Source: Escherichia coli (lineage in GTDB: Bacteria > Pseudomonadota > Gammaproteobacteria > Enterobacterales > Enterobacteriaceae). Taken from it: DNA of 64,000 bases. The stretch lies in NCBI RefSeq assembly GCF_044324875.1, contig NZ_CP172185.1, one strand, 5' to 3'. The notes under the pieces were generated by a model. The model saw only the letters and a program-made list of their open reading frames with translations, did not search any database and was not told the origin of the DNA. A program made the position numbers and the translations under genes. Within the stretch, counting starts at the first letter, position 1. The number at the start of each line of letters is the position of its first letter. Below are positions 7,836-39,042 of the stretch, in pieces.

Positions 7836-8507
7836 ATGCAGTACCCGATTAACGAGATGTTCCAGACCCTGCAAGGTGAGGGTTACTTTACCGGCGTCCC
7901 CGCCATTTTTATTCGTTTACAGGGATGCCCGGTTGGCTGTGCCTGGTGCGACACCAAACACACCTGGGAAAAGCTTGAGGATCGGGAAGTCTCCCTTTTC
8001 AGCATTCTGGCGAAGACCAAAGAGAGTGATAAGTGGGGGGCGGCGAGCAGTGAAGACTTGCTGGCTGTCATTGGTCGCCAGGGATACACCGCGCGGCATG
8101 TGGTGATTACGGGTGGTGAGCCTTGCATTCATGATTTGCTGCCACTGACTGACCTGCTCGAAAAGAACGGTTTTAGCTGCCAGATCGAAACCAGTGGTAC
8201 TCATGAGGTACGCTGCACACCGAATACCTGGGTTACCGTATCGCCAAAGCTGAACATGCGCGGCGGCTATGAAGTGTTGTCACAGGCACTGGAGCGAGCC
8301 AACGAAATCAAGCATCCAGTGGGACGCGTACGTGATATTGAAGCACTGGATGAACTACTGGCAACACTGACCGATGATAAACCGCGAGTCATTGCACTGC
8401 AGCCGATTAGCCAAAAGGATGATGCTACTCGTTTATGTATCGATACGTGCATTGCGCGCAACTGGCGTTTGTCGATGCAAACGCATAAATATTTAAATAT
8501 TGCCTGA
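7836..8507 (+). CDS. queE: 7-carboxy-7-deazaguanine synthase (radical SAM)
   Basis: 223 aa; radical-SAM Cys motif CPVGCAWCDT; position next to CRISPR array as in E. coli ygcF. Confidence 0.92.
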   Translation: MQYPINEMFQTLQGEGYFTGVPAIFIRLQGCPVGCAWCDTKHTWEKLEDREVSLFSILAKTKESDKWGAASSEDLLAVIGRQGYTARHVVITGGEPCIHDLLPLTDLLEKNGFSCQIETSGTHEVRCTPNTWVTVSPKLNMRGGYEVLSQALERANEIKHPVGRVRDIEALDELLATLTDDKPRVIALQPISQKDDATRLCIDTCIARNWRLSMQTHKYLNIA

Positions 8508-8689
8508 TTAAACATTTATAAGCGTTATAAATGGGTGGAACCTGTAAAGACTTCTACTCATTTATATTCTTTGTCGCCTCTGAAAAACCTCCATTTTGCC
8601 CATCCTGAACTAATCATTATCATTCTCTACAAATTTTATGGCGTTAATTTTTCGTTGGAGTGAAAATTATTGCGGTGAAATTTGGTAGA

Positions 8690-8845
8690 TTTTAGTTTGA
8701 ATAGAGTTATTTCAAATATTTATCTTTTTAATCAATGGATTAAATGCTCTTTAACATAATGGATGTGTTGTTTGTGTGATACTGTAAAGTTGGTAGATTG
8801 TGACTGGCTTAAAAAATCATTAATTAATAATAGGTTATGTTTAGA
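8690..8845 (+). promoter_or_regulatory. CRISPR leader (AT-rich) for array at 8846
   Basis: AT-rich tract directly 5' of first repeat; contains motif AGTTGGTAGATTGT 44 bp upstream of repeat 1, also present at the same spacing in the second leader (37409..37422). Confidence 0.65.
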
Positions 8846-9118
8846 GAGTTCCCCGCGCCAGCGGGGATAAACCGCTTCATCTGTCGGGCTAACTGGACAA
8901 AGAAACGAGTTCCCCGCGCCAGCGGGGATAAACCGTCGGTTTGACATCAAAGAAGCCATCAATCAGGGAGTTCCCCGCGCCAGCGGGGATAAACCGGTCT
9001 GGCCATAGGAACAAAGAAATTTGTCTTTGAGTTCCCCACGTCAGCGGGGATAAACCGGACACAGAGCGCCGCTATAGCGCCTATGCCAAGAGTTCCCCGC
9101 GCCAGCGGGGATAAACCA
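8846..9118 (+). CRISPR. Type I-E CRISPR array, 5 repeats / 4 spacers (29-bp repeat GAGTTCCCCGCGCCAGCGGGGATAAACCG, 32-bp spacers)
   Basis: Repeats start at 8846, 8907, 8968, 9029, 9090 (61-bp period); repeat 4 has two substitutions, repeat 5 ends A instead of G. Confidence 0.97.
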
Positions 9119-9571
9119 CCATATAACCCGTTATCTCTTTCTCAAGTTTTTATATTAGCAGTACTTGTAATAAGCAACATATCCACGTAACACCTCATGT
9201 TCAAAATAGTTCTCCATGCCAGAGAAGTTCACAATTATCGATACAAAAAATTAAATTTAATCAAAGTGTTATTTGTATGATTCTTAAATCGTTAAGAAAT
9301 TTTAATATATTATTTTTTTAATATTAATTAATGCCTGTTAATTTTTTCTTTAGAATAACAGTGTATTTTTTAAGCTTATTATTCATTGATTAAGTAATAA
9401 ATCTGGAAATTTGTCTTTGTTTTGAGGCTAATGAGTGATTTTACATAATCGCCTCTATACGCTGTTGATGAATAGTTCTTATGAATAAAGATATCCAGTT
9501 CATACTTTAAGTGAAAATTGATAAAGTGCGATTCGTATTGTCTTTTATTCTAAAGACATCGAGTGTAGTTA

Positions 9572-9709
9572 ATATTCCTTGTAAAAACAGGGATAAACCG
9601 AACTAGTTAAAGTTTTTATTATGTTCCCTGCATCAGCGGGGATAAACCGGACTTGTTATCATTTTTTAAGTTGTCGAACTTATGTTCCCCGCGTCAGCGG
9701 GGATAACCA
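9572..9709 (+). CRISPR. Degenerate CRISPR remnant (2 recognisable repeats at 9621 and 9682 with one 32-bp spacer, plus a partial repeat ending 9600)
   Basis: ATGTTCCCTGCATCAGCGGGGATAAACCG and ATGTTCCCCGCGTCAGCGGGGATAACC read directly; no convincing leader. Confidence 0.65.
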
Positions 9710-9755
9710 TTCAGGTATGTTCAGGCCGGGCAGTTTCCCGCCCGGTCTTCCTCAC

Positions 9756-11234
9756 TTACGCATTCGACCAGCTCTGGATCGAATCTTCATTCCCCAGCTC
9801 ACCATGCATCACTTCATACGATTTTTTCAGGATCACATCAGTGTGTTTGGTTAGGTCTTTGAAAATGCCTTTATTCATCGCGTTGTAGCGTTTGGCGTTG
9901 CTCTCAACAGGCATAAAGATATCTTTCACGCGAACCATTTTGTCGACAGCCGTTGCGTAATCCGGGTATAGCCCCAGACCTACCGCCGTATTAATCGCTG
10001 CCCCCAGGCTTGCACAACCATTAATGGCGTTACGGCGTGCCGGAAGGTTGAACACGTCGGCAAAAATCTGCATAAACAGATCGCTGTTCGAACCGCCGCC
10101 AGTAATGATCACATGCTTTGCAAAGTGATTCATTTCATTACACATATTGTCGTAATTGTTCTTCAGCGTCAGCGCCACGCTTTCCAGTATCGAACGATAT
10201 ATCCATGCGTAATCCATGCTGGAATCAAAGCCAATCATAATCCCGCGTTTGTACGGTTCCCACGGATTGGTCAGCCAGTCCAGCACCGTCATCAGACCAT
10301 TACAGCCTGGCGGCACACAAGAAGCTTTTTTGTTGAGTAAATCTTCCGGTGAAAGATCCTGCGCCCTGGCATCCTGAATTAACGACTCGCCTAGCATGTC
10401 GCGCAGCCAGCTCACCGTCCACATGCCTTTGCGAATACCGTAACCTTCATACAGCAAGGTTTGCGGAATAGAAGACATAATCGGCCAGTACGCTACCGGA
10501 TCTTTCGGCAGTACTTTGCCGTTCATCATCAACGCGATGTAAGTGCCAAGAGAAATTACCGCAGTTTCATCATCCAGTAACCCGGCTCCCAGTGCTTCTA
10601 CCGGTTTATCACTGGTGGTACAAACAACCGGCAGCCCAGCCGGGAAATGTGTCGCCAGCGCGGCTTGAGGAGTGATATGCCCAAGAACAGTGCCCGGCAT
10701 TTGCACATCAAACAGCATATGACGGGGGATATTAAACTTCTCCATGACTGCGGCATCTTCACTCCATGCCCAGGTCTTATAATCCACCGGCCACTGACCA
10801 AAATAGTTGGCGATATTGTCTTTAAACTCGCCGGTTAAGCGATGCGTCAGATAACCCGAAAAAGAGGTGACATATGCCACGTCAGGATTCGTATGTTCGT
10901 AAGGGCGTGTAACGCGTGCATCCTGCCAGCTAATCAACGGCGCAGCTGGCGTGCCATCGGCTTTCAATAACGCACGGCAGCAACGGATGGATCCCAGACC
11001 AATACCGACAATATCTTCTTTATTTCCGGCAAACTGACTCATCAAATCGTGACCGGCAAAGCATAATGATGCCCATAAATCGTCGTCAGGATGTTCTGCG
11101 GTATCGGCATCTGGCGTGTGCATCGGCTGCAATAAGCCTTTGCCTTCGCAAACCACATTACCTTCCAGATCGTACATCACCACTTTTGTGCTCTGACTTC
11201 CACCATCAATCCCTATGATGTATTTTTTCGACAT
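9756..11234 (-). CDS. ygcE: FGGY-family carbohydrate kinase
   Basis: 492 aa; N-terminal IGIDGGSQSTK typical of FGGY kinases. Confidence 0.88.
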   Translation of the reverse strand: MSKKYIIGIDGGSQSTKVVMYDLEGNVVCEGKGLLQPMHTPDADTAEHPDDDLWASLCFAGHDLMSQFAGNKEDIVGIGLGSIRCCRALLKADGTPAAPLISWQDARVTRPYEHTNPDVAYVTSFSGYLTHRLTGEFKDNIANYFGQWPVDYKTWAWSEDAAVMEKFNIPRHMLFDVQMPGTVLGHITPQAALATHFPAGLPVVCTTSDKPVEALGAGLLDDETAVISLGTYIALMMNGKVLPKDPVAYWPIMSSIPQTLLYEGYGIRKGMWTVSWLRDMLGESLIQDARAQDLSPEDLLNKKASCVPPGCNGLMTVLDWLTNPWEPYKRGIMIGFDSSMDYAWIYRSILESVALTLKNNYDNMCNEMNHFAKHVIITGGGSNSDLFMQIFADVFNLPARRNAINGCASLGAAINTAVGLGLYPDYATAVDKMVRVKDIFMPVESNAKRYNAMNKGIFKDLTKHTDVILKKSYEVMHGELGNEDSIQSWSNA

Positions 11235-25550: not shown

Positions 25551-25815
25551 AATATCGTACCGCTTAATAAACGTCTCTGTCTGAAAAGATGGGGGCGTTT
25601 TTATTTTGCGAGCAGCATTCCTGATTTTAAACGTGAACGCCGCTGGAAGAATTATCAAGTATAGAATGGCGTTGGGTGCTTGAGGCTGTCTGGCGTTAAG
25701 CATTCGCGAGGTTCCAGATGGACAAAAGCCCCAGGCGATATTTCTATCAACCTGAGGCCAGCGTTCGAACCTAAGCAATTCGAATGTTAGTCTCTTCTTT
25801 GCAGGGAGGCAAGAC

Positions 25816-25968
25816 ATGCTGACAAAATATGCCCTTGTGGCAATCATCGTACTGTGTTGTACAGTACTGGGATTCACGCTGATGGTAGGCGACTCGTTGT
25901 GTGAGTTGAGTATCAGAGAACGTGGTATGGAGTTTAAGGCAGTTCTCGCTTACGAATCGAAGAAGTAG
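25816..25968 (+). CDS. Hok/Gef-family type I toxin (50 aa)
   Basis: Not in ORF track (<60 aa). ATG 25816 preceded by GGGAGG; product [50 protein letters not shown] has the Hok architecture (single TM then DSLCEL..); followed by ACGCGGGG-loop-CCCCGCGT hairpin (25974..25995). Confidence 0.75.
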
Positions 25969-26319
25969 CCACCACGCGGGGGTAAAACCCCGCGTATTGA
26001 ATTGTGATGGTTTGGTCTCCTGCACCCTTTTTTAATTTATATTGTTTATGTGAATATTATGCCTATGTTTATTATTCATATATATTACGGATGAAAATTA
26101 TTTGATTATTCATAATGTGCAAAATGGCATCTGAATCGATCGCAGTTTGGCATTCGAATCGATCATGATTTGGCATCCATCTCCGATCACAGTTTGGCAT
26201 CACAATCGATCACGATTTGGCATGCTTCCGATCATTGATTGGCATCCTGCCAGTCACTCCGGGAATTAACTCTTTTCACCACAGTCTCCATTGCCGTGTT
26301 TAAACCAGTGGAGACGTCA

Positions 26320-27885
26320 ATGTCCAGAAAGAGAAAATCCAGGAGCACTATGGAAACCTGTTTTAAGATCCTTCAGCTCAAGTTCGACAAGAAGCTGACT
26401 AACCGTTGTATCGGACTGACGTTACACATCAGCGCCTCAACCGTTTTTGAGGTTCTTGCCCGCTTCAAAGCCTCTTCTCTGTCATGGCCATTACCTGCTG
26501 ATATATCCCATGACACGCTGGAGAAACTCATTTTTCCGCCCAAAGACACCTTTGCATCAGAGCTTGTAATGCCTGACATGTTGTACTTCGATACGGAAAT
26601 GAGAAAACCAGGTGTGACGCGGCAACTGTTGTGGATGGAATACAAGGCACAGGCGGGTAACAAAGCGATGGGATACTCGCACTTCTGCCGTTGCTACCGG
26701 GAGTGGAAAAAAACGCGACGTCTCTCCATGCGCCAGGAGCATCGTGCCGGCGAAAAGCTTTTTATCGACTTCTGTGGTCCTACGGTTCCTGTTATTAATC
26801 CGGACACCGGTGAGATACGCCGCGTGGCAATCTTCGTGGCCGTAATGGGGGCGTCCAACTATACCTACGTTGAAGCGTGCGAAGGTCAGGACATGATGTC
26901 ATGGTTAAATGCCCACAGCCGTTGCCTGACCTTCCTGGGCGGCGTACCGAAGCTGCTCATCCCCGATAACCTCAGAAGCGCAGTGAAAAAGGCCGATCGA
27001 TATGAGCCTGTCATCAACGACAGTTATCAGGCACTGGCTGAGCACTATGGCACGGTTATCATCCCGGCCCGACCACGCAAACCTAAAGATAAACCAAAAG
27101 CAGAAAACGGCGTCCTCATCGTTGAACGATGGCTTCTTGCCCGCATCCGTAATGAAACCTTCCACACGCTCAGGGCGCTGAATGCGCGCCTTAGGGAGTT
27201 ACTGACAGACATGAATAACCGGCCAATGAAGGGGTACGGCAATCAAACCCGTGCAGAACGCTTCCGCATACTGGATGCGCCAGCACTCTCTCCGCTGCCT
27301 CTGGCACCTTATGAATACACGGAATACAAAGCTGTGAAGGTTGGCCCTGACTACCACGTTGAATATGCCCGTCACTGGTACTCCGTTCCACACGAACTGG
27401 TCGGTCAGCGTCTGTCACTGAAGGCGGGGCAGTCGGTGGTACAGCTCTGGCACAAGGGGCAGTGTGTGGCGCAACATCCGCGCAGCACACATGAATATAA
27501 ACACACAACCAATCCGCTTCACATGCCAGAGCGCCACCGGCAGCACGGGACATGGACACCGGAACGCCTGATCGAGCAGGGAAAACGTACGGGCCCGTCC
27601 ACAGGCCGGGTGGTTGAATCCATGCTGAAGGCAAAACCCCATCCGGAACTGGCTTATCGTGCAGTTCTGGGGCTGCTGGCACTTCAGAAAAAATACGGCC
27701 CGGAACGGCTGGAAAAGGCCTGTTACGTTGCCCTGCACTATAACGCCCCTGACAGACGCTTTATCGACAATCTGCTGCGTCACCATCGGGAGAACCTGGA
27801 GCTTCCATTATCCCGCCAGGGCGAACAACATCCGGCATATGCTTCAGAGCATGAAAACCTGCGTGGTCCGGGCTACTACCACTGA
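26320..27885 (+). CDS. istA: IS21-family transposase IstA
   Basis: ORF 26239..27885; start set at ATG 26320 (MSRKRK..); N-terminal HTH region and DDE-type core. Confidence 0.85.
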   Translation: MSRKRKSRSTMETCFKILQLKFDKKLTNRCIGLTLHISASTVFEVLARFKASSLSWPLPADISHDTLEKLIFPPKDTFASELVMPDMLYFDTEMRKPGVTRQLLWMEYKAQAGNKAMGYSHFCRCYREWKKTRRLSMRQEHRAGEKLFIDFCGPTVPVINPDTGEIRRVAIFVAVMGASNYTYVEACEGQDMMSWLNAHSRCLTFLGGVPKLLIPDNLRSAVKKADRYEPVINDSYQALAEHYGTVIIPARPRKPKDKPKAENGVLIVERWLLARIRNETFHTLRALNARLRELLTDMNNRPMKGYGNQTRAERFRILDAPALSPLPLAPYEYTEYKAVKVGPDYHVEYARHWYSVPHELVGQRLSLKAGQSVVQLWHKGQCVAQHPRSTHEYKHTTNPLHMPERHRQHGTWTPERLIEQGKRTGPSTGRVVESMLKAKPHPELAYRAVLGLLALQKKYGPERLEKACYVALHYNAPDRRFIDNLLRHHRENLELPLSRQGEQHPAYASEHENLRGPGYYH

Positions 27886-27901
27886 CAGAAGGAACAACAG
27901 T

Positions 27902-28657
27902 ATGAGTGATAACCTGTTAAACAAACTGACCCAACTGAAACTCCCGGCGATGGCCGGGAGCCTGATACGGCAGCGGGAAACGCCTCAGACCTACGACGAA
28001 CTGTCGTTCGAGGAAAGGCTGACGCTGCTGGTTGATGACGAGCTTCTGAGCAGGGAAAACAGCCGTGTGGCACGGTTGAGAAAAAATGCCGGCCTGAAAT
28101 ACCAGGCAACACCGGAAGGGCTGCGCTATCCGGCCTCAAGAGGTCTGCGGGCTGAACAGATGAGAGAACTGCTGAACGGCCACTACATAACCCACAGGAA
28201 AAACCTGCTGATAACCGGTCCGACAGGATGTGGCAAGAGCTGGATAGCCAATGCGCTGGGCGAACAGGCATGTCGACAGAAACACAGCGTCCGGTACTGT
28301 AGAACCGGGCGATTACTGGAACAACTGGCTCAGGGACGTGTTGATGGCAGCTGGCTGAAATATCTGAAACAGTTGCAAAAAATACAGGTTCTAATCCTGG
28401 ACGATCTGGGGCTGGAACAGTTAAGTAACGCCCAGTGTAATGACCTTCTGGAGCTCATAGAGGATCGTTACGGACAAAGCAGCACGATAGTGGTAAGCCA
28501 GTTCCCGGTAGATAAATGGCATGGTCTGATGGAGAACCCAACAACAGCAGATGCCATCCTGGACAGACTGGTACATAACTCACACCGAGTGGTCCTTCAG
28601 GGAGAGTCACTGAGGAAAAATCCCCCGGTAGTGGAAAGCAGCGAAAAAACGCGTTAA
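27902..28657 (+). CDS. istB: IS21-family ATP-binding helper protein IstB
   Basis: ORF 27659..28657; start set at ATG 27902 (MSDNLLNKLTQL); Walker A GPTGCGKS, Walker B ILDDLG. Confidence 0.88.
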   Translation: MSDNLLNKLTQLKLPAMAGSLIRQRETPQTYDELSFEERLTLLVDDELLSRENSRVARLRKNAGLKYQATPEGLRYPASRGLRAEQMRELLNGHYITHRKNLLITGPTGCGKSWIANALGEQACRQKHSVRYCRTGRLLEQLAQGRVDGSWLKYLKQLQKIQVLILDDLGLEQLSNAQCNDLLELIEDRYGQSSTIVVSQFPVDKWHGLMENPTTADAILDRLVHNSHRVVLQGESLRKNPPVVESSEKTR

Positions 28658-28808
28658 AAAGCGGTAGAAAAAGTTAAGTTCCCGGTTGATCGAATGGATG
28701 CGAATCGCTGATCGGACTTCGATGCCAATCCGTGATCGAATAGAGCGGAATACGCACATAATGTAAATATTTTATTGAACGATATATATCACAGATAATT
28801 TTTAATAT

Positions 28809-31508
28809 ATGCGTAAATATCCTTTAAGTTTACTGAAGGATAAAAATATTGTGACTTTTTTTGATTTCTGGGGAAAAACCCGACGCGGCGAGAAAGACGG
28901 GGGCGACGACTATCACCTTCTTTGCTGGCATTCGCTGGATGTAGCCGCGATGGGCTATTTAATGGTTAAAAGCAATTGCTTCGGGCTGACTGACTATTTT
29001 CGTCAACTAGGTTTCGCTGATACGGAGCAGGCAGCACAATTTTTCGCCTGGCTATTGTGCTGGCACGATACTGGAAAATTTGCCCGCTCTTTTCAGCAAC
29101 TTTACCTGCACCCACAACTCAAGGTTCCGGAAGGCGCAAGAAAGAATTACGAAAAGATCTCTCATTCAACGCTGGGCTACTGGCTGTGGCATCATTATTT
29201 AAGTGAATACGAAGAATTGCTTCCTTCATCTTCACTCTCTCCGCGCAAACTTAAACGGGTGATGGAGATGTGGATGCCCATAACTACCGGGCATCATGGT
29301 CGCCCGCCTGACCGTATTGATGAACTGGATAATTTTCTGCCTGAAGACAAAGCTGCCGCGCGAGATTTTCTTCTTGAAATCAAACCACTGTTTCCGCTCA
29401 TAGAGATCCCCGCATTCTGGGATGATGATGAGGGCATTGAACTTATAAAACACCTTTCCTGGTATATCTCTGCAACCGTCGTGCTCGCAGACTGGACGGG
29501 TTCGTCAACGCGATTTTTTCCACGCGTCGCACACCCAATGGATATTAAAGGTTACTGGCAGAAAACTTTAGTTCAGGCTCAAAACGCCTTAACCGTCTTT
29601 CCTCTAAAAGCAAAAGTCGCGCCTTTCACCGGAATTAATACGCTGTTTCCTTTTATTGAGAATCCGACACCGTTACAGCAAAAGGTGCTGGATCTGGATA
29701 TCAGCCAGCCAGGGCCACAGTTATTTATTCTGGAAGATGTGACTGGCGCAGGTAAAACGGAAGCGGCGCTTATCCTGGCGCACAGGTTGATGGCTGCGGG
29801 TAAAGCGCAGGGTTTGTTTTTTGGCCTGCCAACAATGGCAACGGCCAATGCCATGTACGATCGACTGGTCAAAACCTGGCTTGCTTTCTATTCGCCAGAG
29901 TCCCGCCCCAGCCTGGTGCTGGCACACAGTGCCCGAACATTAATGGACCGCTTTAATGAATCACTCTGGTCCGGTGATTTAGTCGGGTCAGAAGAACCGG
30001 ATGAACAAACGTTCAGTCAGGGATGTGCGGCCTGGTTTGCCGACAGTAACAAGAAGGCGCTACTGGCTGAAATTGGCGTCGGCACGCTGGATCAGGCGAT
30101 GATGGCTGTGATGCCGTTCAAACATAATAATCTGCGGCTTCTGGGACTGAGTAACAAAATCCTGCTGGCTGATGAGATCCATGCCTGTGACGCTTACATG
30201 TCATGCATTCTTGAAGGGCTGATCGAGCGGCAGGCGCGTGGCGGAAACAGCGTCATTTTGCTTTCTGCCACGTTATCTCAACAGCAGTGCGACAAACTCG
30301 TTGCTGCCTTTGCGCGTGGTACAGAGGGCCAGCAAGAAGCTCCGTTCCTGGAAAAGGATGATTACCCCTGGCTGACGCACGTTACGAAATCCGATGTGCA
30401 TTCACACCGGGTAGCGACGCGCAAAGACGTTGAGCGTAGCGTGAGCGTGGGTTGGCTTCATAGCGAACAAGAATGTATTGCGCGTATCGAATCGGCAGTA
30501 AGTCAGGGGAAATGCATCGCCTGGATCCGGAATTCTGTCGATGACGCTATTAAGGTTTATCGTCAGTTGCTTGCCCGCGGCGTCATTCCTGCTTCCAGCC
30601 TTTCTCTGTTTCATAGCCGCTTTGCTTTTAGCGATCGCCAGCGAATTGAAACGGAAACGCTGGCACGCTTCGGTAAAGAAGATAGCTCACAGCGTGCCGG
30701 AAAAGTCCTCATTTGTACTCAGGTCTTAGAGTCGAGCGTTGATTGCGATATGGACGAAATGATTTCCGACCTGGCCCCTGTTGATTTGCTGATCCAGCGA
30801 GCGGGGCGATTACAGCGGCATATCCGCGATATTAATGGTCAGTTAAAGCGTGACGGAAAAGACGAGCGTTCCCCTCCTGAATTGCTGATTCTGGCCCCCG
30901 TCTGGGACGACGCTCCAGGTGACGAATGGTTCGGCAGTGCCATGCGTAACAGTGCATATGTCTATCCCGATCATGGACGAATCTGGCTGACGCAGCGTGT
31001 ACTGCGTGAGCAAGGCGCTATTCAAATGCCACACGCAGCCCGCCTTCTTATTGAATCAGTCTACGGTGAGGACGTGGTAATGCCGGAAGGATTTGCCCGC
31101 AGCGAGCAGGAGCAAGTGGGCAAATATTACTGCGATCGCGCAATGGCTAAAAAGTTTGTGCTGAACTTCAGGCCTGGCTATGCCGCCAATATCAACGATT
31201 ACCTTCCGGAAAAGCTGTCGACACGTCTGGCGGAGGAGTCTGTTTCCCTGTGGCTGGCTACCTGTATTGCCAGTGTGGTGAAGCCTTATGCCAACGGTGC
31301 TCACGCATGGGAAATGAGCGTTGTCAGAGTGCGTCGAAGCTGGTGGAAAAAACATCGGGATGAGTTTTCTTTACTGGAAGGGGAAGCGTTCAGGCAGTGG
31401 TGCATTGAACAGCGGAAAGATCCGGAGATGGCAAACGTGATTTTAGTTACCGATGACGAAAGTTGCGGGTATTCGGCTATGGAAGGATTGACTGGCAAGG
31501 TTGGTTGA
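28809..31508 (+). CDS. cas3: Cas3 nuclease/helicase (type I-E)
   Basis: 899 aa; HD nuclease motifs (LLCWHSLDVAA, WHDTGKF), DEAH-type helicase (GAGKTEAA, LADEIHA); immediately precedes cse1. Confidence 0.93.
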   Translation: MRKYPLSLLKDKNIVTFFDFWGKTRRGEKDGGDDYHLLCWHSLDVAAMGYLMVKSNCFGLTDYFRQLGFADTEQAAQFFAWLLCWHDTGKFARSFQQLYLHPQLKVPEGARKNYEKISHSTLGYWLWHHYLSEYEELLPSSSLSPRKLKRVMEMWMPITTGHHGRPPDRIDELDNFLPEDKAAARDFLLEIKPLFPLIEIPAFWDDDEGIELIKHLSWYISATVVLADWTGSSTRFFPRVAHPMDIKGYWQKTLVQAQNALTVFPLKAKVAPFTGINTLFPFIENPTPLQQKVLDLDISQPGPQLFILEDVTGAGKTEAALILAHRLMAAGKAQGLFFGLPTMATANAMYDRLVKTWLAFYSPESRPSLVLAHSARTLMDRFNESLWSGDLVGSEEPDEQTFSQGCAAWFADSNKKALLAEIGVGTLDQAMMAVMPFKHNNLRLLGLSNKILLADEIHACDAYMSCILEGLIERQARGGNSVILLSATLSQQQCDKLVAAFARGTEGQQEAPFLEKDDYPWLTHVTKSDVHSHRVATRKDVERSVSVGWLHSEQECIARIESAVSQGKCIAWIRNSVDDAIKVYRQLLARGVIPASSLSLFHSRFAFSDRQRIETETLARFGKEDSSQRAGKVLICTQVLESSVDCDMDEMISDLAPVDLLIQRAGRLQRHIRDINGQLKRDGKDERSPPELLILAPVWDDAPGDEWFGSAMRNSAYVYPDHGRIWLTQRVLREQGAIQMPHAARLLIESVYGEDVVMPEGFARSEQEQVGKYYCDRAMAKKFVLNFRPGYAANINDYLPEKLSTRLAEESVSLWLATCIASVVKPYANGAHAWEMSVVRVRRSWWKKHRDEFSLLEGEAFRQWCIEQRKDPEMANVILVTDDESCGYSAMEGLTGKVG

Positions 31509-31605
31509 GATGCCTGCGACAGGGCTCTCTGAATAGTTGATACACCGAAAAGGATGGAATGATGGACAACCGACCTGGGATGGTCTTTTTTACGAGAGGA
31601 TGCGT

Positions 31606-33168
31606 ATGAACTCGTTTTCACTTCTGACAACCCCGTGGTTGCCCGTTCGTTATAAAGACGGAACGACAGGCAAACTGGCGCCTGTCGATCTGGCGGATGA
31701 AAATGTTGTCGATATTGCTGCGCCACGGGCAGATCTCCAGGGAGCGGCATGGCAGTTTTTGCTGGGGCTACTACAAACCAGCTTTGCGCCAAAAGATCAT
31801 CGTCGTTGGGATGATATCTGGGAAGACGGACTGGAATCTGAAAAGCTACGGGAAGCATTGCTGTCCTTAGAACACGCTTTCCAGTTTGGGCCAGATTCCC
31901 CTTCATTTATGCAGGATTTCGAGGCGCTCACAGGAGATAAAGTTCAGGTCGCTTCGCTACTGCCTGAGATTCCCGGCGCTCAAACAACGAAGTTTAATAA
32001 AGACCACTTTATCAAGCGTGGTGTAACGGAATACCTGTGCCCACATTGTTCTGCGTTAGCTCTGTTCTCCCTACAGTTAAATGCGCCGTCAGGTGGTAAA
32101 GGCTACCGCACCGGTTTACGCGGCGGTGGGCCGATGACCACTCTGATTGAATTACAGGAATATCAGGGCAATCAACAAACGCCCTTGTGGCGCAAACTGT
32201 GGCTCAATGTGATGCCGCAGGACGAAGCCGACTTACCGCTACCCAAAAAATTTGACGATCTGGTTTTCCCCTGGCTTGGCCCGACGCGTACCAGCGAACT
32301 GGCCGGTGCGGTGGTAACCGATGATCAGGTTAATAAACTCCAGGCGTACTGGGGAATGCCGCGGCGTATTCGTATTGATTTTAATACCACGACAGTCGGC
32401 AACTGCGATATTTGCGGCGAGCAGAACGACGCGCTCCTGAGCCTGATGACGACCAAAAATTACGGCGCGAATTATGCCATGTGGCAGCATCCCTTAACGC
32501 CTTACCGTGTACCCCTTAAAGAGGGCGGCGAGTTTTACTCGGTCAAACCACAACCAGGCGGTTTAATCTGGCGCGACTGGTTAGGCCTTATCGAAACGGG
32601 TAAATCAGAAAACAATACGGAACTTCCCGCGCTGGTGGTGAAACTCTTTAATGCCAGCAGTCTCAAGCAGGCAAAAGTGGGCCTGTGGGGATTTGGTTAT
32701 GATTTTGACAACATGAAAGCGCGCTGTTGGTACGAACACCATTTTCCGCTGCTGCTCGATAAAAAAGAAGGCCAGATACCGAAGCTGCGGCTGGCTGCGC
32801 AAACGGCTTCACGGATTCTGAGTCTGTTACGGAGTGCATTGAAAGAAGCGTGGTTCTCCGATCCAAAAGGTGCACGGGGTGATTTCAGTTTTGTGGATAT
32901 CGACTTCTGGAACAAAACTCAGCATCGCTTCCTGAGGTTAGTGCGCCACATTGAAGAAGGTCAGGATGCGGATGAATTACTCAGCAAATGGCAAAAGGAA
33001 ATTTGGTTATTCGCGCGTCAGGATTTTGACGAGCGTGTCTTCACCAATCCATATGAGCCCGTTGATTTGAAACGCGTCATGACCGCGCGCAAGAAATATT
33101 TTACAACATCGGCGGAGAAGCAAAATGCTAAAGCCGCCAGGGAGAAAAAGCAGGAGGCTGCTGAATGA
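31606..33168 (+). CDS. casA: Cascade large subunit Cse1/CasA
   Basis: ORF 31537..33168; start set at ATG 31606 (MNSFSLLTTPWLPVR), 6 nt after GAGG; size and position fit Cse1. Confidence 0.85.
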   Translation: MNSFSLLTTPWLPVRYKDGTTGKLAPVDLADENVVDIAAPRADLQGAAWQFLLGLLQTSFAPKDHRRWDDIWEDGLESEKLREALLSLEHAFQFGPDSPSFMQDFEALTGDKVQVASLLPEIPGAQTTKFNKDHFIKRGVTEYLCPHCSALALFSLQLNAPSGGKGYRTGLRGGGPMTTLIELQEYQGNQQTPLWRKLWLNVMPQDEADLPLPKKFDDLVFPWLGPTRTSELAGAVVTDDQVNKLQAYWGMPRRIRIDFNTTTVGNCDICGEQNDALLSLMTTKNYGANYAMWQHPLTPYRVPLKEGGEFYSVKPQPGGLIWRDWLGLIETGKSENNTELPALVVKLFNASSLKQAKVGLWGFGYDFDNMKARCWYEHHFPLLLDKKEGQIPKLRLAAQTASRILSLLRSALKEAWFSDPKGARGDFSFVDIDFWNKTQHRFLRLVRHIEEGQDADELLSKWQKEIWLFARQDFDERVFTNPYEPVDLKRVMTARKKYFTTSAEKQNAKAAREKKQEAAE

Positions 33169-33701
33169 GTATTGTAAAAGAGGAGCACAAAGCCACGCTG
33201 CGTAAATGGCACGAAGAGTTGCAGGAAAAACGCGGCAATCGTGCCAGTCTGCGGCGTAGCACAACGGTTAATGATGTTTGTCTGTCAGAAGGGTTTCGTT
33301 CTCTGCTGATGCAGACCCACACTTTGTGGAAAATTGAAGCACAAGAGTGGCGTTTTACCGCACTGGCGCTGGTCGCCGCAGTTAGCGCCAATGTTAAAGC
33401 TATTGATGAACGGCAGCCTTTTGCCGCGCAGCTGGCGGCGGTAATGTCGGAGGGGCGTTTTACTCGCCTGTCGGCAGTAAAAACGCCTGATGATTTACTG
33501 CGTCAGTTACGTCGCGCGGTCAAATTATTAAATGGTTCCGTCAATCTTATCTCTTTGGCAGAAGATATTTTCCGCTGGTGCCAGGAGAGCGACGACCTGC
33601 TCAATCATCACCGCCGCCAGCAGCGGCCAACAGAATTTATCCGTATCCGCTGGGCGCTGGAATATTACCAGGCTGGCGACGCCGATAACGAACAAAATTA
33701 A
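33165..33701 (+). CDS. casB: Cascade small subunit Cse2/CasB
   Basis: 178 aa; start overlaps casA stop (ATGA). Confidence 0.85.
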   Translation: MSIVKEEHKATLRKWHEELQEKRGNRASLRRSTTVNDVCLSEGFRSLLMQTHTLWKIEAQEWRFTALALVAAVSANVKAIDERQPFAAQLAAVMSEGRFTRLSAVKTPDDLLRQLRRAVKLLNGSVNLISLAEDIFRWCQESDDLLNHHRRQQRPTEFIRIRWALEYYQAGDADNEQN

Positions 33702-33715
33702 TAAAGGACTATCTC

Positions 33716-34771
33716 ATGACGACATTTATTCAGCTTCATTTGTTAACCGCTTACCCTGCTGCCAACCTTAACCGTGATGACACCGGTGCGCCAAAAACTG
33801 TGGTACTGGGTGGAGCAACGCGTCTGCGCGTTTCCTCACAAAGTCTGAAACGTGCGTGGCGCACTTCTGCACTTTTTGAACAGGCACTGGCGGGCCATAT
33901 TGGTATTCGCAGTGGGCGTATTGCGCGTGAGGCGGCAACTATCCTGATTGAGAAAGGCATCGAAGAGAAAAAAGCCATCGAATGGGCGGCAAAAATTGCG
34001 GATTATCTTGGGAAAGCTAAAAACGACAAAAAACCAAAAGATCCGCTCACTAACGCCGAAACTGAACAGCTAGTCCATATCAGCCCGGCAGAATTTGACG
34101 CCGTAAAAGCGCTGGCCCATCAACTGGCCGAAGAAAAGCGCGCGCCAAAAGAGGAAGATCTCGCTTTGTTACGTAAAGATCGCATGGCGGTAGATATCGC
34201 TATGTTTGGTCGTATGCTGGCGAATAAACCCGAATTTAATGTTGAAGCCGCCTGCCAGGTCGCGCATGCATTTGGTGTCAGTGAAACGATTGTCGAAGAT
34301 GATTTTTTCACCGCCGTTGATGATTTGCGCCAGGCTTCTGAAGATGCCGGTGCCGGGCATCTTGGTGAAACCGGATTCGGTTCTGCGCTGTTCTACACCT
34401 ATATCTGCATCGATAAAGATCTGCTGGTCGAAAACCTCGGCGGTGACGAAGCGTTAGCTAATCAGACCTTGCGCGCCTTTACGGAAGCCGCACTTAAAGT
34501 CTCCCCAACCGGCAAACAGAACAGCTTTGCCAGCCGTGCCTACGCCTCCTGGGCGCTGGCAGAAAAAGGCACTGAACAACCACGCTCTCTGGCGGCGGCT
34601 TTCTATGAACCCATTAATGGCACCCGGCAGTTAGATGTGGCGGTGCAGCGTATTACAACGCTTCGCGAAAATATGAATACGGTCTATGAACAGAAGACCG
34701 AATGCGCAAGCTTTGACGTGATGAACAAACAGGGAAGCATGAAGGACGTGCTGGACTTTATCTGCGCGTAA
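33716..34771 (+). CDS. casC: Cascade backbone Cas7e/CasC
   Basis: 351 aa; position and size in the type I-E operon. Confidence 0.88.
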   Translation: MTTFIQLHLLTAYPAANLNRDDTGAPKTVVLGGATRLRVSSQSLKRAWRTSALFEQALAGHIGIRSGRIAREAATILIEKGIEEKKAIEWAAKIADYLGKAKNDKKPKDPLTNAETEQLVHISPAEFDAVKALAHQLAEEKRAPKEEDLALLRKDRMAVDIAMFGRMLANKPEFNVEAACQVAHAFGVSETIVEDDFFTAVDDLRQASEDAGAGHLGETGFGSALFYTYICIDKDLLVENLGGDEALANQTLRAFTEAALKVSPTGKQNSFASRAYASWALAEKGTEQPRSLAAAFYEPINGTRQLDVAVQRITTLRENMNTVYEQKTECASFDVMNKQGSMKDVLDFICA

Positions 34772-34781
34772 GGGGCGGCTA

Positions 34782-35528
34782 ATGAGCCAATATTTGATTT
34801 TTCAGCTTCATGGGCCAATGGCATCCTGGGGCGTCGATGCCCCCGGCGAAGTGCGTCATACCCATGAACTGCCTTCGCGCTCAGCATTGCTGGGGCTGCT
34901 GGCTGCCGGGGTAGGGATTCGGCGTGATGATACCGAACGATTAAACGCGTTTAACCGCCACTATTCACTGGTGGTTTGCGCCAGCCGTAACCCGCGCTGG
35001 GCACGGGATTATCACACGGTCCAGATGCCAAAAGAGGTGCGTAAAGCGCGTTATTTCAGCCGTCGCGAAGAGTTGAGCGCCCCTGATCTTCTGAGCGCGA
35101 TTATCTCCCGGCGCGACTACTACACCGATGCCTGGTGGATGGTGGCGGTGGCAACAACCCCCGATGCGCCTTACAGGCTTGAACAGTTGCAGGACGGTTT
35201 ACGTCATCCGGTTTTTCCGCTTTATCTGGGGCGAAAAAGTCATCCGCTGGCGTTACCACTTGCGCCGTTACTGCTCGAAGGCAACGCGTCTGATGTCTTA
35301 CGTAACGCATACCAACAGTATCAGGATAGTTTCCGCGAACTGAAAGTCTCACTCCCGAAACTTCAGGATGAATGCTGGTGGGAAGGGGAACACGACGGCC
35401 TGGTCGCGAGCAAAATATTACGTCGCCGGGATGTTCCTTTAAATCGTCAGCAGTGGCTGTTTGGGGAACGCACCATCAATCAGGGGCCGTGGCTCAGCAA
35501 GGAGGAACCATGTACCTCTCAAGAATAA
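34782..35528 (+). CDS. casD: Cascade Cas5e/CasD
   Basis: 248 aa; position and size in the type I-E operon. Confidence 0.85.
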   Translation: MSQYLIFQLHGPMASWGVDAPGEVRHTHELPSRSALLGLLAAGVGIRRDDTERLNAFNRHYSLVVCASRNPRWARDYHTVQMPKEVRKARYFSRREELSAPDLLSAIISRRDYYTDAWWMVAVATTPDAPYRLEQLQDGLRHPVFPLYLGRKSHPLALPLAPLLLEGNASDVLRNAYQQYQDSFRELKVSLPKLQDECWWEGEHDGLVASKILRRRDVPLNRQQWLFGERTINQGPWLSKEEPCTSQE

Positions 35529-36156
35529 CCTTACATACCGGCCAGCTTTTGCCTGCGCAGTTGCTGCATTTGGTGGATCGCGGTGAATATGTAATGCATC
35601 AGTGGCTGTGGGATCTTTTTCCTGGCGGCAAAGAAAGGCAATTTCTTTATCGTCGGGAAGAACTCCAGGGGGCGTTTCGCTTTTTTGTCCTGTCGCAGGA
35701 ACGCCCGGCGGAAAGTGATATTTTCACCATCGAATGCCGACCATTTGCGCCAGAGTTGCGTACCGGACAATCCCTTTGTTTCAACCTGCGGGCGAATCCA
35801 ACAATTTGTAAAGCGGGCAAACGCCACGACTTGCTGATGGAGGCGAAACGGCAGGTGAGGGGGCAGGTGGAAGGAAGTGATGTCTGGTTGCATCAACAAC
35901 AGGCGGCGCTGGACTGGCTGGCAGCGCAGGGGGAAAGAAGCGGTTTTACACTACTGGATACCTCGGTCGATGCCTACCGACAACAGCAACTGCGGCGGGA
36001 AAACTCCCGGCAACTGATCCAGTTCAGTAGCGTGGATTATACGGGGATGCTTACGGTCACCGATCCTGGGTTATTTCTGCAACGTCTCAGTCAGGGGTAT
36101 GGCAAAAGCCGGGCGTTCGGTTGTGGTCTGATGCTGATCAAACCCGGAGCAGAGGC

Positions 36157-36160
<4 letters not shown>
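35510..36160 (+). CDS. casE: Cas6e/CasE pre-crRNA endoribonuclease
   Basis: ORF 35372..36160; start set at ATG 35510 (MYLSRITL) after AGGAGG; overlaps casD end. Confidence 0.88.
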
Positions 36161-37370
<1,210 letters not shown>

Positions 37371-37466
37371 GTTAGACGTTCTTTAAAAATAAGGAAATGT
37401 TTGAATTTAGTTGGTAGATTGTTGATGTGGAATAAATTTGTTTAAAAACAGATATGTATGCTTAGT
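37371..37466 (+). promoter_or_regulatory. CRISPR leader for cas-adjacent array
   Basis: AT-rich 96 bp between cas2 stop and first repeat; contains AGTTGGTAGATTGT at 37409..37422. Confidence 0.75.
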
Positions 37467-37983
37467 GTGTTCCCCGCGCCAGCGGGGATAAACCGCTTTT
37501 GTTTCTGATTTCTACGCCTGTGGGTAAGTGTTCCCCGCGCCAGCGGGGATAAACCGGAGCAACTACTCGCAGCACAACAGGCAGGTAGGTGTTCCCCGCG
37601 CCAGCGGGGATAAACCGTTTTCTCTAATTACAGTGATTTTTCAAAATCCGTGTTCCCCGCGCCAGCGGGGATAAACCGCGATTCAAAAATAAAATGACGA
37701 CGGAGGAGGCGTGTTCCCCGCGCCAGCGGGGATAAACCGCCGTCGAAGTGACCATGCTCTTTCATTGTGATGTGTTCCCCGCGCCAGCGGGGATAAACCG
37801 AACACAGCGTAAAACCGTCGCAGCCATGCCGAGAGTTCCCCGCGCCAGTGGGGATAAACCGATTGGTCGGTTATGCATCCTGCTAACCAGATTGTGTTCC
37901 CCGCACCAGCGGGGATAAACCGTAATATTAGACTAATGTTTTTTTGTTGAGTTCGTGTTCCCCCGCCACTGCGGTAGAACTCC
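37467..37983 (+). CRISPR. Type I-E CRISPR array, 9 repeats / 8 spacers (repeat GTGTTCCCCGCGCCAGCGGGGATAAACCG; terminal repeat degenerate)
   Basis: Repeats start at 37467, 37528, 37589, 37650, 37711, 37772, 37833, 37894, 37955 (61-bp period); repeats 7 and 8 carry point changes; repeat 9 is GTGTTCCCCCGCCACTGCGGTAGAACTCC. Confidence 0.97.
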
Positions 37984-38004
37984 CAGCTCCCATTTTCATA
38001 CCCA

Positions 38005-39042
38005 TCAAGACGCCTTCGCCAGCTCCTTCACCAGCGGTAGCATTATCCGCATAACATCACGGCAGCGACGTTCTATTCTTCCTGGAAGTGCCTTATCAAT
38101 ATGTTGTTGATTATCCAGTCTTACGTCATGCCAGCTATTTCCCGCAGGGAATGCAGCTGTTTTTGCGCGTTGCTGATAACCATCCTTATTCCCAAGATTC
38201 CAATTTGTTGCTTCTACCGAAAGTACGGCAATACCGGCTTTGTCGAAAACTTCGGCGTCATTACAACAGCCAGTACCCTTCGGATAATTTTTATTCAAAC
38301 CCGGATTGGTCGTTGCGGCAATTCCATGACTACGCGCAATTGCCAGTGCCCTGTCGCGCGTTAATTTCCTTACTGCTTCAGGGGTTTTTACACCACTGTT
38401 GAAATACAATTTATCGCCAACAATTAAGTTATCGAGATTAATCACCAGCAGCGTATTTTTCTTTTCGGTGTCACTCATCCGCTTGAGTAAATTCTCAGCT
38501 CCTAATTTCCCTTCCTCTTCACCACTGGTCGCCACAAATCGAATACCATACTCGGTAGGCGTATTTTTCAGGCGTTCTGCCAGTTCCAGCATGACACCTA
38601 AACCTGCGGCGTTATCATCCATTCCTTGTAACGTCAGTCCGCCGAGATTGGCATCGGCGTCAGCATCGCTCAGCGGGGCGTAAGTATCCAGATGCGCCAT
38701 AATGATGATCTGCTGCGGCGCTTTGCCTTCATGAGCGGCAATCACCGTACTTCCCGTCACGTTATGCCAGCTCTTGCGATTATCGCGGGCGGTATAAATA
38801 TACCGACTATTAAATGTCCGAATATCACTGCGATAACCCATTTGCTGAAACTGTTGGCGAATATAATCGGCAGATAACATTTCTGCAGGAGTTCCGGTCA
38901 TGCGTCCCGGAAAGAAAGTAGCAATATGTCGTGCCTGGGTATTAGCAAAATCGCCAGGTTTAGGTGACGAGGCGTGTACGGGGAGAATAAAGCATACGCC
39001 GAGCGCCAGGGCAGCGGTACGGTGGCGCAATGCGGAAAACAT
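38005..39042 (-). CDS. iap: Alkaline phosphatase isozyme conversion aminopeptidase (M28 family)
   Basis: 345 aa with signal peptide; position flanking the CRISPR array. Confidence 0.92.
   Translation of the reverse strand: MFSALRHRTAALALGVCFILPVHASSPKPGDFANTQARHIATFFPGRMTGTPAEMLSADYIRQQFQQMGYRSDIRTFNSRYIYTARDNRKSWHNVTGSTVIAAHEGKAPQQIIIMAHLDTYAPLSDADADANLGGLTLQGMDDNAAGLGVMLELAERLKNTPTEYGIRFVATSGEEEGKLGAENLLKRMSDTEKKNTLLVINLDNLIVGDKLYFNSGVKTPEAVRKLTRDRALAIARSHGIAATTNPGLNKNYPKGTGCCNDAEVFDKAGIAVLSVEATNWNLGNKDGYQQRAKTAAFPAGNSWHDVRLDNQQHIDKALPGRIERRCRDVMRIMLPLVKELAKAS

Follow-up and report, generated by a model that had tools for sequence, protein, structure and literature searches.

A leader block shared by two distant type I-E CRISPR arrays of Escherichia coli very probably corresponds to the published Cas1-Cas2 docking site

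Described type I-E leaders and the layout of the locus

The leader requirements of type I-E spacer acquisition have been mapped in E. coli K-12, whose leader was mutated in 12-bp and then in 4-bp blocks (Yoganand 2016, PMC5224486). Altering positions -46 to -57 (CBS2), or -50 to -53 alone, abolishes acquisition in vivo; the same changes abolish the IHF + Cas1-2 supershift and integration in vitro, and leave IHF binding and bending intact (PMC5224486). Positions -50 to -53 were named the integrase anchoring site (IAS), which is conserved together with the IHF site in I-E leaders (PMC5224486). According to reviews, IHF sits at -9 to -35 and bends the leader sharply, so that upstream DNA at -50 to -55 contacts Cas1-Cas2 at the leader-repeat junction (PMC10011333, PMC5815122); an upstream recognition motif is attributed to Wright 2017, as cited in these two reviews.

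For arrays and loci we follow the nomenclature of Diez-Villasenor and Almendros (CRISPR2.1, CRISPR2.2 and CRISPR2.3; CRISPR-I and CRISPR-II; PMC3903273). Systems of the E1/L1 type are recognised by the cysH-iap site, by a leader linked to the cas variant (the L1 type being tied to cas-E1), by hok/sok, which is absent in E2 strains, and by GTG repeats (PMC3903273). The two forms of the first repeat triplet, GAG and GTG, are the published CRISPR-T/CRISPR-A polymorphism (PMC3737337).

The 64-kb stretch of DNA analysed here (the window) is a segment of an E. coli chromosome with a type I-E system, comprising two arrays and a cas operon:

7836..8507, + strand: queE (ygcF), left flank of the CRISPR-II locus; open reading frame, annotated queE in the identical region of O17_K12a and others
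8508..8845, + strand: leader of CRISPR2.3 (leader 2.3); homology to cas2-side leaders demonstrable over 8729-8845
8846..9118, + strand: CRISPR2.3 array (array A, CRISPR-II); 5 GAG-type (CRISPR-T) repeats, 4 spacers
about 9591..9707, + strand: CRISPR2.2 remnant, made up of degenerate repeats with no leader and located 0.5 kb downstream of CRISPR2.3; identical in K-12 and named in PMC3903273
28809..31508, + strand: cas3, intact, 899 aa; NCBIfam TIGR01587 and TIGR01596 above cut-off, K-12-type equivalog NF007248 below cut-off
31537..36160, + strand: Cascade genes overall; NCBIfam equivalogs all above cut-off, as for each of the five genes that follow
31537 to 33168, + strand: cse1/casA
33165-33701, + strand: cse2/casB
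33716-34771, + strand: cas7/casC
34782-35528, + strand: cas5/casD
about 35510-36160, + strand: cas6e/casE
36157..37080, + strand: cas1e; TIGR03638 with 380.8 bits, 85% identical to K-12 Cas1 without gaps
37077..37370, + strand: cas2e, 97 aa; TIGR01873
37371..37466, + strand: leader of CRISPR2.1 (L1 / leader-A type), consisting of the 96 nt that separate the cas2 stop codon from repeat 1
37467..37983, + strand: CRISPR2.1 array (array B, CRISPR-I); 8 repeats and a degenerate terminal repeat, 8 spacers (B1-B8)
38005..39042, - strand: iap, right flank of the CRISPR-I locus; open reading frame, annotated iap in homologous loci

Flanked by queE (ygcF), on the side of its leader 2.3, and by ygcE, and followed after 0.5 kb by the leaderless 2.2 remnant, array A belongs in these respects to CRISPR-II. 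Several complete E. coli genomes, among them ECA64, CB6837 and O17_K12a, match the surrounding region (8400-9800) at 100% identity and have it annotated as queE, CRISPR and ygcE. Array B occupies the CRISPR-I location, with cysH, sok and iap flanking the locus, and many E. coli have a cas3-to-iap region about 98% (97.8%) identical to positions 28757-38100. The CRISPR2.2 remnant, a third, leaderless mini-array at about 9591-9707, had been missed in the first-pass annotation.

In both arrays, 29-nt palindromic type-2 repeats of the sequence G(A/T)GTTCCCCGCGCCAGCGGGGATAAACCG alternate with 32-nt spacers at a period of 61 bp throughout. Array A has its repeats at 8846, 8907, 8968, 9029 and 9090 with four spacers between them; array B, with eight spacers, runs through eight repeats at 37467-37922 to a degenerate terminal repeat at 37955-37983. 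The extents first assigned to the arrays (8846-9118 and 37467-37983) and their common + strand orientation were confirmed, as was the difference in repeat triplets, which are GAG in all five repeats of array A and GTG in array B with repeat 7 (GAG) as the sole exception. Each array would propagate the repeat variant that adjoins its leader, GAG at queE and GTG at cas2. In K-12 the assignment is reversed (GAG at CRISPR2.1, GTG at CRISPR2.3), and the repeat variant is therefore not tied to the locus.

With CRISPR-II of K-12 and BL21, array A has in common the flanking genes, the 14-mer at 44 nt discussed below, a terminal repeat ending in ...AAACCA and the CRISPR2.2 remnant 0.5 kb downstream. 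The K-12 CRISPR2.3 leader is identical to the array A leader from -60 to -1, and a single substitution, at -64, was found in the 81 nt compared. In contrast to K-12, where CRISPR-II carries GTG repeats, the repeats here are GAG (CRISPR-T), and the spacer set differs as well (four here, the two newest from P1).

The cas operon encodes the type I-E gene set in order (cas3, cse1, cse2, cas7, cas5, cas6e, cas1e, cas2e; 28809-37370), and all eight genes are intact, each scoring above its curated NCBIfam I-E cut-off. The K-12-specific models for Cas3 and CasA (NF007248, NF007247) score far under their cut-offs. Sok was detected at 25674-25831 (RF01794) as the sole match of an Rfam scan that returned no CRISPR repeat family at the gathering threshold. 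Because hok/sok is present, the repeats are of the GTG form, the leader is unlike K-12 leader 2.1 and the K-12-specific models stay below cut-off, we assign the cas genes to the majority E1 (cas-EO, O157:H7-like) variant and not to the E2 variant of K-12. The system thereby resembles E. coli CRISPR-I with cas-E1/cas-EO and L1, as described for O157:H7 and most E. coli (PMC3903273, PMC3737337), in its iap-cysH site, hok/sok, GTG (CRISPR-A) repeats, ATG PAMs and cas genes, which are about 98% identical to those of many E. coli. It differs by its own spacer set, of which only B4 and B8 are common to others, and by an IS21-family insertion. This element (26119-28756) lies between hok/sok and cas3, 52 bp upstream of the latter, and may affect present-day interference and priming.

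A 14-nt block at a fixed distance from repeat 1

The two leaders had been reported in the first-pass annotation to carry the same 14-mer at matching spacing. The motif is indeed present in both, and AGTTGGTAGATTGT has just these two exact copies in 64 kb; the queE-side copy starts one base lower than originally given (8788-8801 instead of 8789-8802), and the spacing, which had been put at 44-45 nt, is exactly 44 nt to repeat 1 in either case. In leader coordinates, both copies span -58 to -45:

8788..8801, + strand: conserved 14-mer of the CRISPR2.3 leader; GTAG at 8793-8796 (-53 to -50)
37409..37422, + strand: conserved 14-mer of the CRISPR2.1 leader; GTAG at 37414-37417

When up to 2 mismatches were allowed, the window contained three matches against an expectation of 0.23. 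In K-12, the CRISPR2.3 leader has the identical 14-mer at 44 nt and the CRISPR2.1 leader has GGTTGGTGGGTTGT, likewise at 44 nt. A degenerate partial copy of the motif (ATTTGGTAGATTTT), which had gone unnoticed before, lies at 8680-8693.

The same geometry recurs beyond E. coli. We scanned one genome per species for 100,044 species with the pattern TTGGTRGRTTG, followed after a gap of 32-62 nt by the repeat core. This returned 14 species of at least six genera (matches came from Escherichia, Citrobacter, Salmonella, Klebsiella, Pseudocitrobacter, Phytobacter and MAGs), 12 of them spaced as in E. coli, one a base shorter (-1) and one a base longer (+1). Among the distinct proximal segments of these motif-carrying enterobacterial leaders, 12/14 are exactly 44 nt long; identity between pairs of segments averages 58%, or 54% with the junction left out, where composition would predict 32%, part of this conservation being inheritance, as the leaders were picked for having the motif and are related by descent. 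The motif itself is invariant in the 14 species apart from the R positions permitted by the search pattern. Across 15 leaders, column information is highest within the motif, over the TTTAG junction and in the positions A(-35), A(-32), A(-31), T(-26) and T(-25). A length that is kept while the sequence drifts is what a bending constraint predicts, because the fold is geometric, and the 44 nt preserved across genera at about 58% identity lend small quantitative support to the published bending model.

An alignment of the two leaders had been named as a check on the observation, which a lack of significant similarity outside the 14-mer was to refute. Similarity does extend past the 14-mer; it is weak in pairwise comparison and becomes clearer by profile. 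Ungapped, the 44-nt proximal segments are identical at 21/44 positions, a value reached by 194 of 10,000 shuffles, and pairwise local alignment of the leaders is marginal (z 2.2-2.5). We then built an nhmmer profile from nine cas2-adjacent loci using upstream DNA only, with the motif and everything downstream of it removed. In a 199-kb search this profile matches 8729-8771, directly upstream of the queE-side motif (E = 5.7e-4), and also the corresponding position in K-12, E. albertii, Escherichia sp. ESNIH1 and Klebsiella grimontii. A whole-leader profile matches positions 302-419 of the 420-nt segment upstream of array A. The homology between the two leaders covers about 117 nt. For E. albertii and ESNIH1, the leader alignments extend further upstream than about -117.

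On the cas2 side, the 96-nt gap between cas2 and repeat 1 recurs at the cas2-adjacent loci of the species examined, and Cas2 is 83.5-97.9% identical to the Cas2 proteins of cas2-adjacent loci in other species with a full-length match. The idea that the queE-side leader retains a fossil of the cas2 3' end was essentially dropped, the homology being mainly of intergenic leader from about -117. Neither tblastn with Cas2 (no match in any CRISPR-II-type leader at E up to 10) nor an nhmmer profile made from the final 150 nt of the cas2 coding sequence (no match to the E. coli CRISPR-II leader; best E = 0.13, in Escherichia sp. ESNIH1) picked up such a remnant, and significant leader homology is therefore essentially intergenic. 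A literature search likewise gave no relevant description of a cas2 remnant in a CRISPR-II leader.

Spacer record of the two arrays

Whether an array takes up spacers can be read in part from the spacers themselves, which for array A are:

8875-8906, + strand: spacer A1
8936-8967, + strand: spacer A2
8997-9028, + strand: spacer A3
9058-9089, + strand: spacer A4

For A1 and A2, phage P1 gene 22 (tail sheath) gives 100% matches, as do hundreds of P1-like plasmids. The two protospacers share a strand, are separated by 458 bp and both follow an ATG; such a pairing on one strand and within 458 bp of a 95-kb genome is what primed adaptation would produce. Related strains share the trailer end of array A and differ at its leader end. 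Strain C4 has the trailer spacers A3 and A4 in common and carries three different leader-end spacers, and KK19-02 carries A1, A2 and A4. This polarised pattern is the one expected from natural acquisition at the queE-side leader.

In array B, the newest spacer, B1, has its match (32/32, with an ATG PAM) in two STEC chromosomes, within the integrase gene of the Rac-like prophage that each carries at ttcA; in IMG/VR no exact match to B1 was found. B7 matches SSU5-like phage-plasmids at 31/32 positions, preceded by ATG, while B4 and B8 also occur in arrays of other E. coli. The array B spacer set as a whole is absent from all 5,426 complete E. coli genomes, and searching the spacers against the window itself gave no match at up to 9 mismatches. 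O17_K12a has an identical array A and a wholly different array B, a contrast that fits the description of CRISPR-II as clonal and of the cas-leader-CRISPR-I module as exchanged (PMC3903273).

All four traceable protospacers (A1, A2, B1, B7) have an ATG PAM. Leader-A arrays have CAT (= ATG) as their most frequent PAM, and O157-type Cas1-2 samples it, which K-12 Cas1-2 never does (PMC3737337); the acquisitions of both arrays are therefore tied to an E1-type integrase like the one encoded here. Since leader-end spacers of both arrays match mobile elements with an ATG PAM, and C4 and KK19-02 show turnover at the leader end, both arrays have been used in nature, with recent acquisitions next to their leaders.

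The source of A3 was sought among phages and plasmids (E up to 1-5), by exact matching in IMG/VR and with a codon-degenerate pattern for its reading frame, in each case with no match. A3 is similar to A1 at 17/23 positions, and by hand count it is identical at 20/32 to the overlapping P1 site, which suggests, without proving it, that it derives from a diverged homologue of the sheath gene.

Probable integrase docking and alternative readings of the block

Based on our data, we are confident that the shared 14-mer is the published Cas1-Cas2 docking block of the standard E. coli I-E arrays CRISPR2.3 and CRISPR2.1, here together with the E1 cas variant. In both leaders, the 14-mer (-58 to -45) encloses CBS2 (-46 to -57) and the IAS (-50 to -53). 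The position of the IAS and its fixed distance from the junction are those of the published I-E leaders, and an A/T-rich putative IHF region accompanies it; the sequence at -53 to -50 differs, being GTGG in the tested K-12 leader 2.1 and GTAG in both leaders here. Putative IHF sites were located by consensus scan:

8810..8822 (-36 to -24), + strand: IHF-like site TAAAAAATCATTA, putative, 2 mismatches to WATCAANNNNTTR
37431..37443 (-36 to -24), + strand: IHF-like site AATAAATTTGTTT, inferred, 2 mismatches to WATCAANNNNTTR

These are the best IHF matches in either leader, and matches with 2 mismatches are frequent in A/T-rich DNA. The conserved A(-35), A(-32), A(-31), T(-26) and T(-25) would fit an IHF core at -36 to -24, which is suggestive only. 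The CRISPR2.3 leader also offers an alternative IHF-like register, AATCATTAATTAA at -31 to -19.

In the mechanism that we propose for this locus, IHF would bind the A/T-rich stretch at about -35 to -9 and bend the DNA sharply, whereupon the block in the -50s would fold onto Cas1-Cas2 at the leader-repeat junction and spacer integration would be restricted to repeat 1. Because such a fold is geometric, the distance from block to junction would be fixed at 44 nt and the intervening sequence would be free to drift. As Cas1-Cas2 acts in trans, the one cas1-cas2 pair (36157-37370) could load both arrays, including the one 28 kb away; an extra array placed 1.8 Mb from the native one has been found to share acquisitions with it (PMC11788318). 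The earlier statement that a single cas1-cas2 pair serves both arrays holds within the 64-kb window. Published mutational and structural work deals with K-12 (E2) Cas1-Cas2 on K-12 leader 2.1 or the BL21 leader, and by analogy we infer that the E1 integrase of this strain docks by the same mechanism on its two leaders. A plasmid reporter with only 43 bp of the A-type leader 2.1, which excludes the 14-mer, still gained insertions (Diez-Villasenor, PMC3737337), so that on a multicopy plasmid under strong selection the block is not an absolute requirement.

The shared motif is thus a real and non-random observation that belongs to established E. coli CRISPR biology: the two-array I-E layout, the relatedness of the leaders, the docking block in the -50s with its IHF-dependent geometry and the A/T repeat variants have all been published. 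Its value lies in annotation, namely of a complete E1-type system in which both arrays have in recent times acquired spacers naturally, directed at P1-like phage-plasmids and at a Rac-like prophage, and the window offers a tidy natural example of how one integrase could feed two distant arrays.

Motif and spacing could also be a mere relic of common descent, for example of an old duplication of the cas2-leader-array junction, which would make the queE-side array an inert orphan. The homology of the leaders over about 117 nt and the conservation of leader 2.3 even in strains without cas genes (PMC3903273) would agree with this, but we give it hardly any credence. Against it stand a block that is invariant next to flanking leader of about 50% identity and a 44-nt length kept across genera. 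Besides, an inert array is at odds with perfect P1 matches with a proper PAM at the queE-side leader end, precisely where related strains differ. Acquisition experiments in BL21-AI use exactly the queE-side leader (PMC5224486, PMC3737337, PMC11788318), and expansion of the queE-side array with the same leader has been published for K-12 and BL21.

A further alternative is that the 14-mer is mainly a promoter, with TTGGTAGATT acting as an extended -10 element (TGnTAnAnT) that drives pre-crRNA in both leaders, so that conservation would stem from transcription. TG-G-TAGATT does fit the extended -10 pattern, and the K-12 CRISPR-1 start, about 50 nt upstream of repeat 1, falls inside or next to the block (PMC10011333). 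We nevertheless consider this reading decidedly unlikely. The K-12 leader 2.1 version, TGGTGGGTT, is without the essential A at position 2 of the -10 hexamer, and the starts given for CRISPR-1 (about -50) and CRISPR-2 (about -95) do not fall 7 nt downstream of the hexamer (PMC10011333). The block is needed by purified IHF and Cas1-2 in transcription-free integration (PMC5224486), and the leader segment sufficient for acquisition is stated to exclude the promoter (PMC3737337). A consensus sigma-70 scan was negative for the proximal portion of each leader, including the motif. We regard the 14-mer as an integration element and not as a recognised promoter element.

This bears on the initial proposal that both arrays are competent for transcription and acquisition. 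The acquisition part is well supported by the docking motif, the intact cas genes and the spacer record, whereas transcription does not follow from the motif. Knowledge of the transcription of both arrays comes from published work on K-12, where weak, H-NS-repressed promoters are reported to initiate about 50 nt (CRISPR-1) or about 95 nt (CRISPR-2) ahead of repeat 1 (PMC10011333). A dual function of the docking block, in which RNA polymerase and the IHF/Cas1-Cas2 complex would compete for the same DNA, seems unlikely to us; it would couple array transcription and spacer integration or make them mutually exclusive. What speaks for it is positional overlap, with the CRISPR-1 start reported for K-12, about 50 nt upstream of repeat 1, lying inside the -58 to -45 block and with the TGgTAGATT reading of the motif.

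Spacer origins in the two arrays

Four spacers are considered here:
8875-8906 and 8936-8967, spacers A1 and A2, the two newest of the queE-side array (CRISPR2.3)
8997-9028, spacer A3 of the queE-side array
37496-37527, spacer B1, the newest of the cas2-side array (CRISPR2.1)

Both A1 and A2 show perfect identity to gene 22 of phage P1, which encodes the tail sheath, and their protospacers, separated by 458 bp, share one strand and are each accompanied by an ATG PAM. Primed adaptation against P1-like phage-plasmids typically leaves such a pattern. The neighbouring A3 is identical to A1 at 17 of 23 positions when shifted by 8 nt and to the overlapping P1 site at 20 of 32, and some of its differences are synonymous if read in the gene-22 frame (GTC/GTT, CGA/AGA). 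Judged from these sequence comparisons, A3 may derive from a diverged sheath-gene homologue; its source was not found in phages, plasmids or IMG/VR. As a side observation, the 14-mer GAAATTTGTCTTTG, formed by the end of A3 and the first repeat base (9015-9029), occurs again at 9406-9420 in the CRISPR2.3-2.2 intergenic region, 0.4 kb downstream of A3. This recurrence may be due to chance, with about 0.01 expected per spacer.

B1 has a 32/32 match in two E. coli genomes, STEC384 and STEC379, where it falls in the integrase gene of a Rac-like prophage located at ttcA; this protospacer also has an ATG PAM. If the strain carries that prophage, B1 would be self-targeting.

The distal CRISPR-II leader and the cas2 end

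In its distal part (8646-8771), the CRISPR-II leader aligns to the final cas2 codons and the distal cas2-side leader, with AATCAATGG at 8730-8738 set against AATCAATAA of cas2, an observation that covers this stretch and three further loci (L004, L006 and L017). It reaches 55-75 nt into the cas2 coding columns in two cases, E. albertii and Escherichia sp. ESNIH1. Furthermore, the pairwise leader alignment places a degenerate, partial copy of the leader 14-mer (8680-8693) opposite the cas2 codons CCGGTGGATTTGG. Such an arrangement would fit an origin of CRISPR-II by duplication of the cas2 junction, which is only a weak possibility, because searches for a cas2 remnant in this leader using a CDS-only profile and tblastn were both non-significant.

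The region upstream of cas3

Two elements lie between cysH and cas3:
25674-25969, hok/sok-type toxin-antitoxin module, between cysH and the IS21 element
25817-25969, small Hok/Gef ORF within this module
26119-28756, IS21-family element, between hok/sok and cas3
26239-27885, istA of this element
about 27903-28657, istB of this element

Rfam matched sok at 111.7 bits, and hok/sok has been described in the same setting in cas-E1 strains (PMC3903273). The IS21-family element is flanked by an 8-bp target duplication (CATAATGT), and the cas3 start codon follows 52 bp downstream of the insertion, which has probably cut off the native promoter from the gene. Among the complete E. coli genomes in the collection, none aligned across the IS21-cas3 junction.

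Exchange of the CRISPR-I module

Strain O17_K12a has a queE-side array identical to that of the window, whereas its cas2-side array (window 37467-37983) is entirely different and its cas3, intact in the window, is frameshifted. The pair is an example of CRISPR-I module exchange beside a clonal CRISPR-II.

A 4.5-kb contig of the MAG "Bacillota bacterium" OH_SDB_141 encodes a Cas2 protein with 97% identity to that of the window; across the 81 nt compared, its leader shows 100% identity to the window's cas2-side leader, and some 29 repeats of the E. coli type come after it. This contig is almost certainly enterobacterial and mis-binned into a Bacillota MAG.
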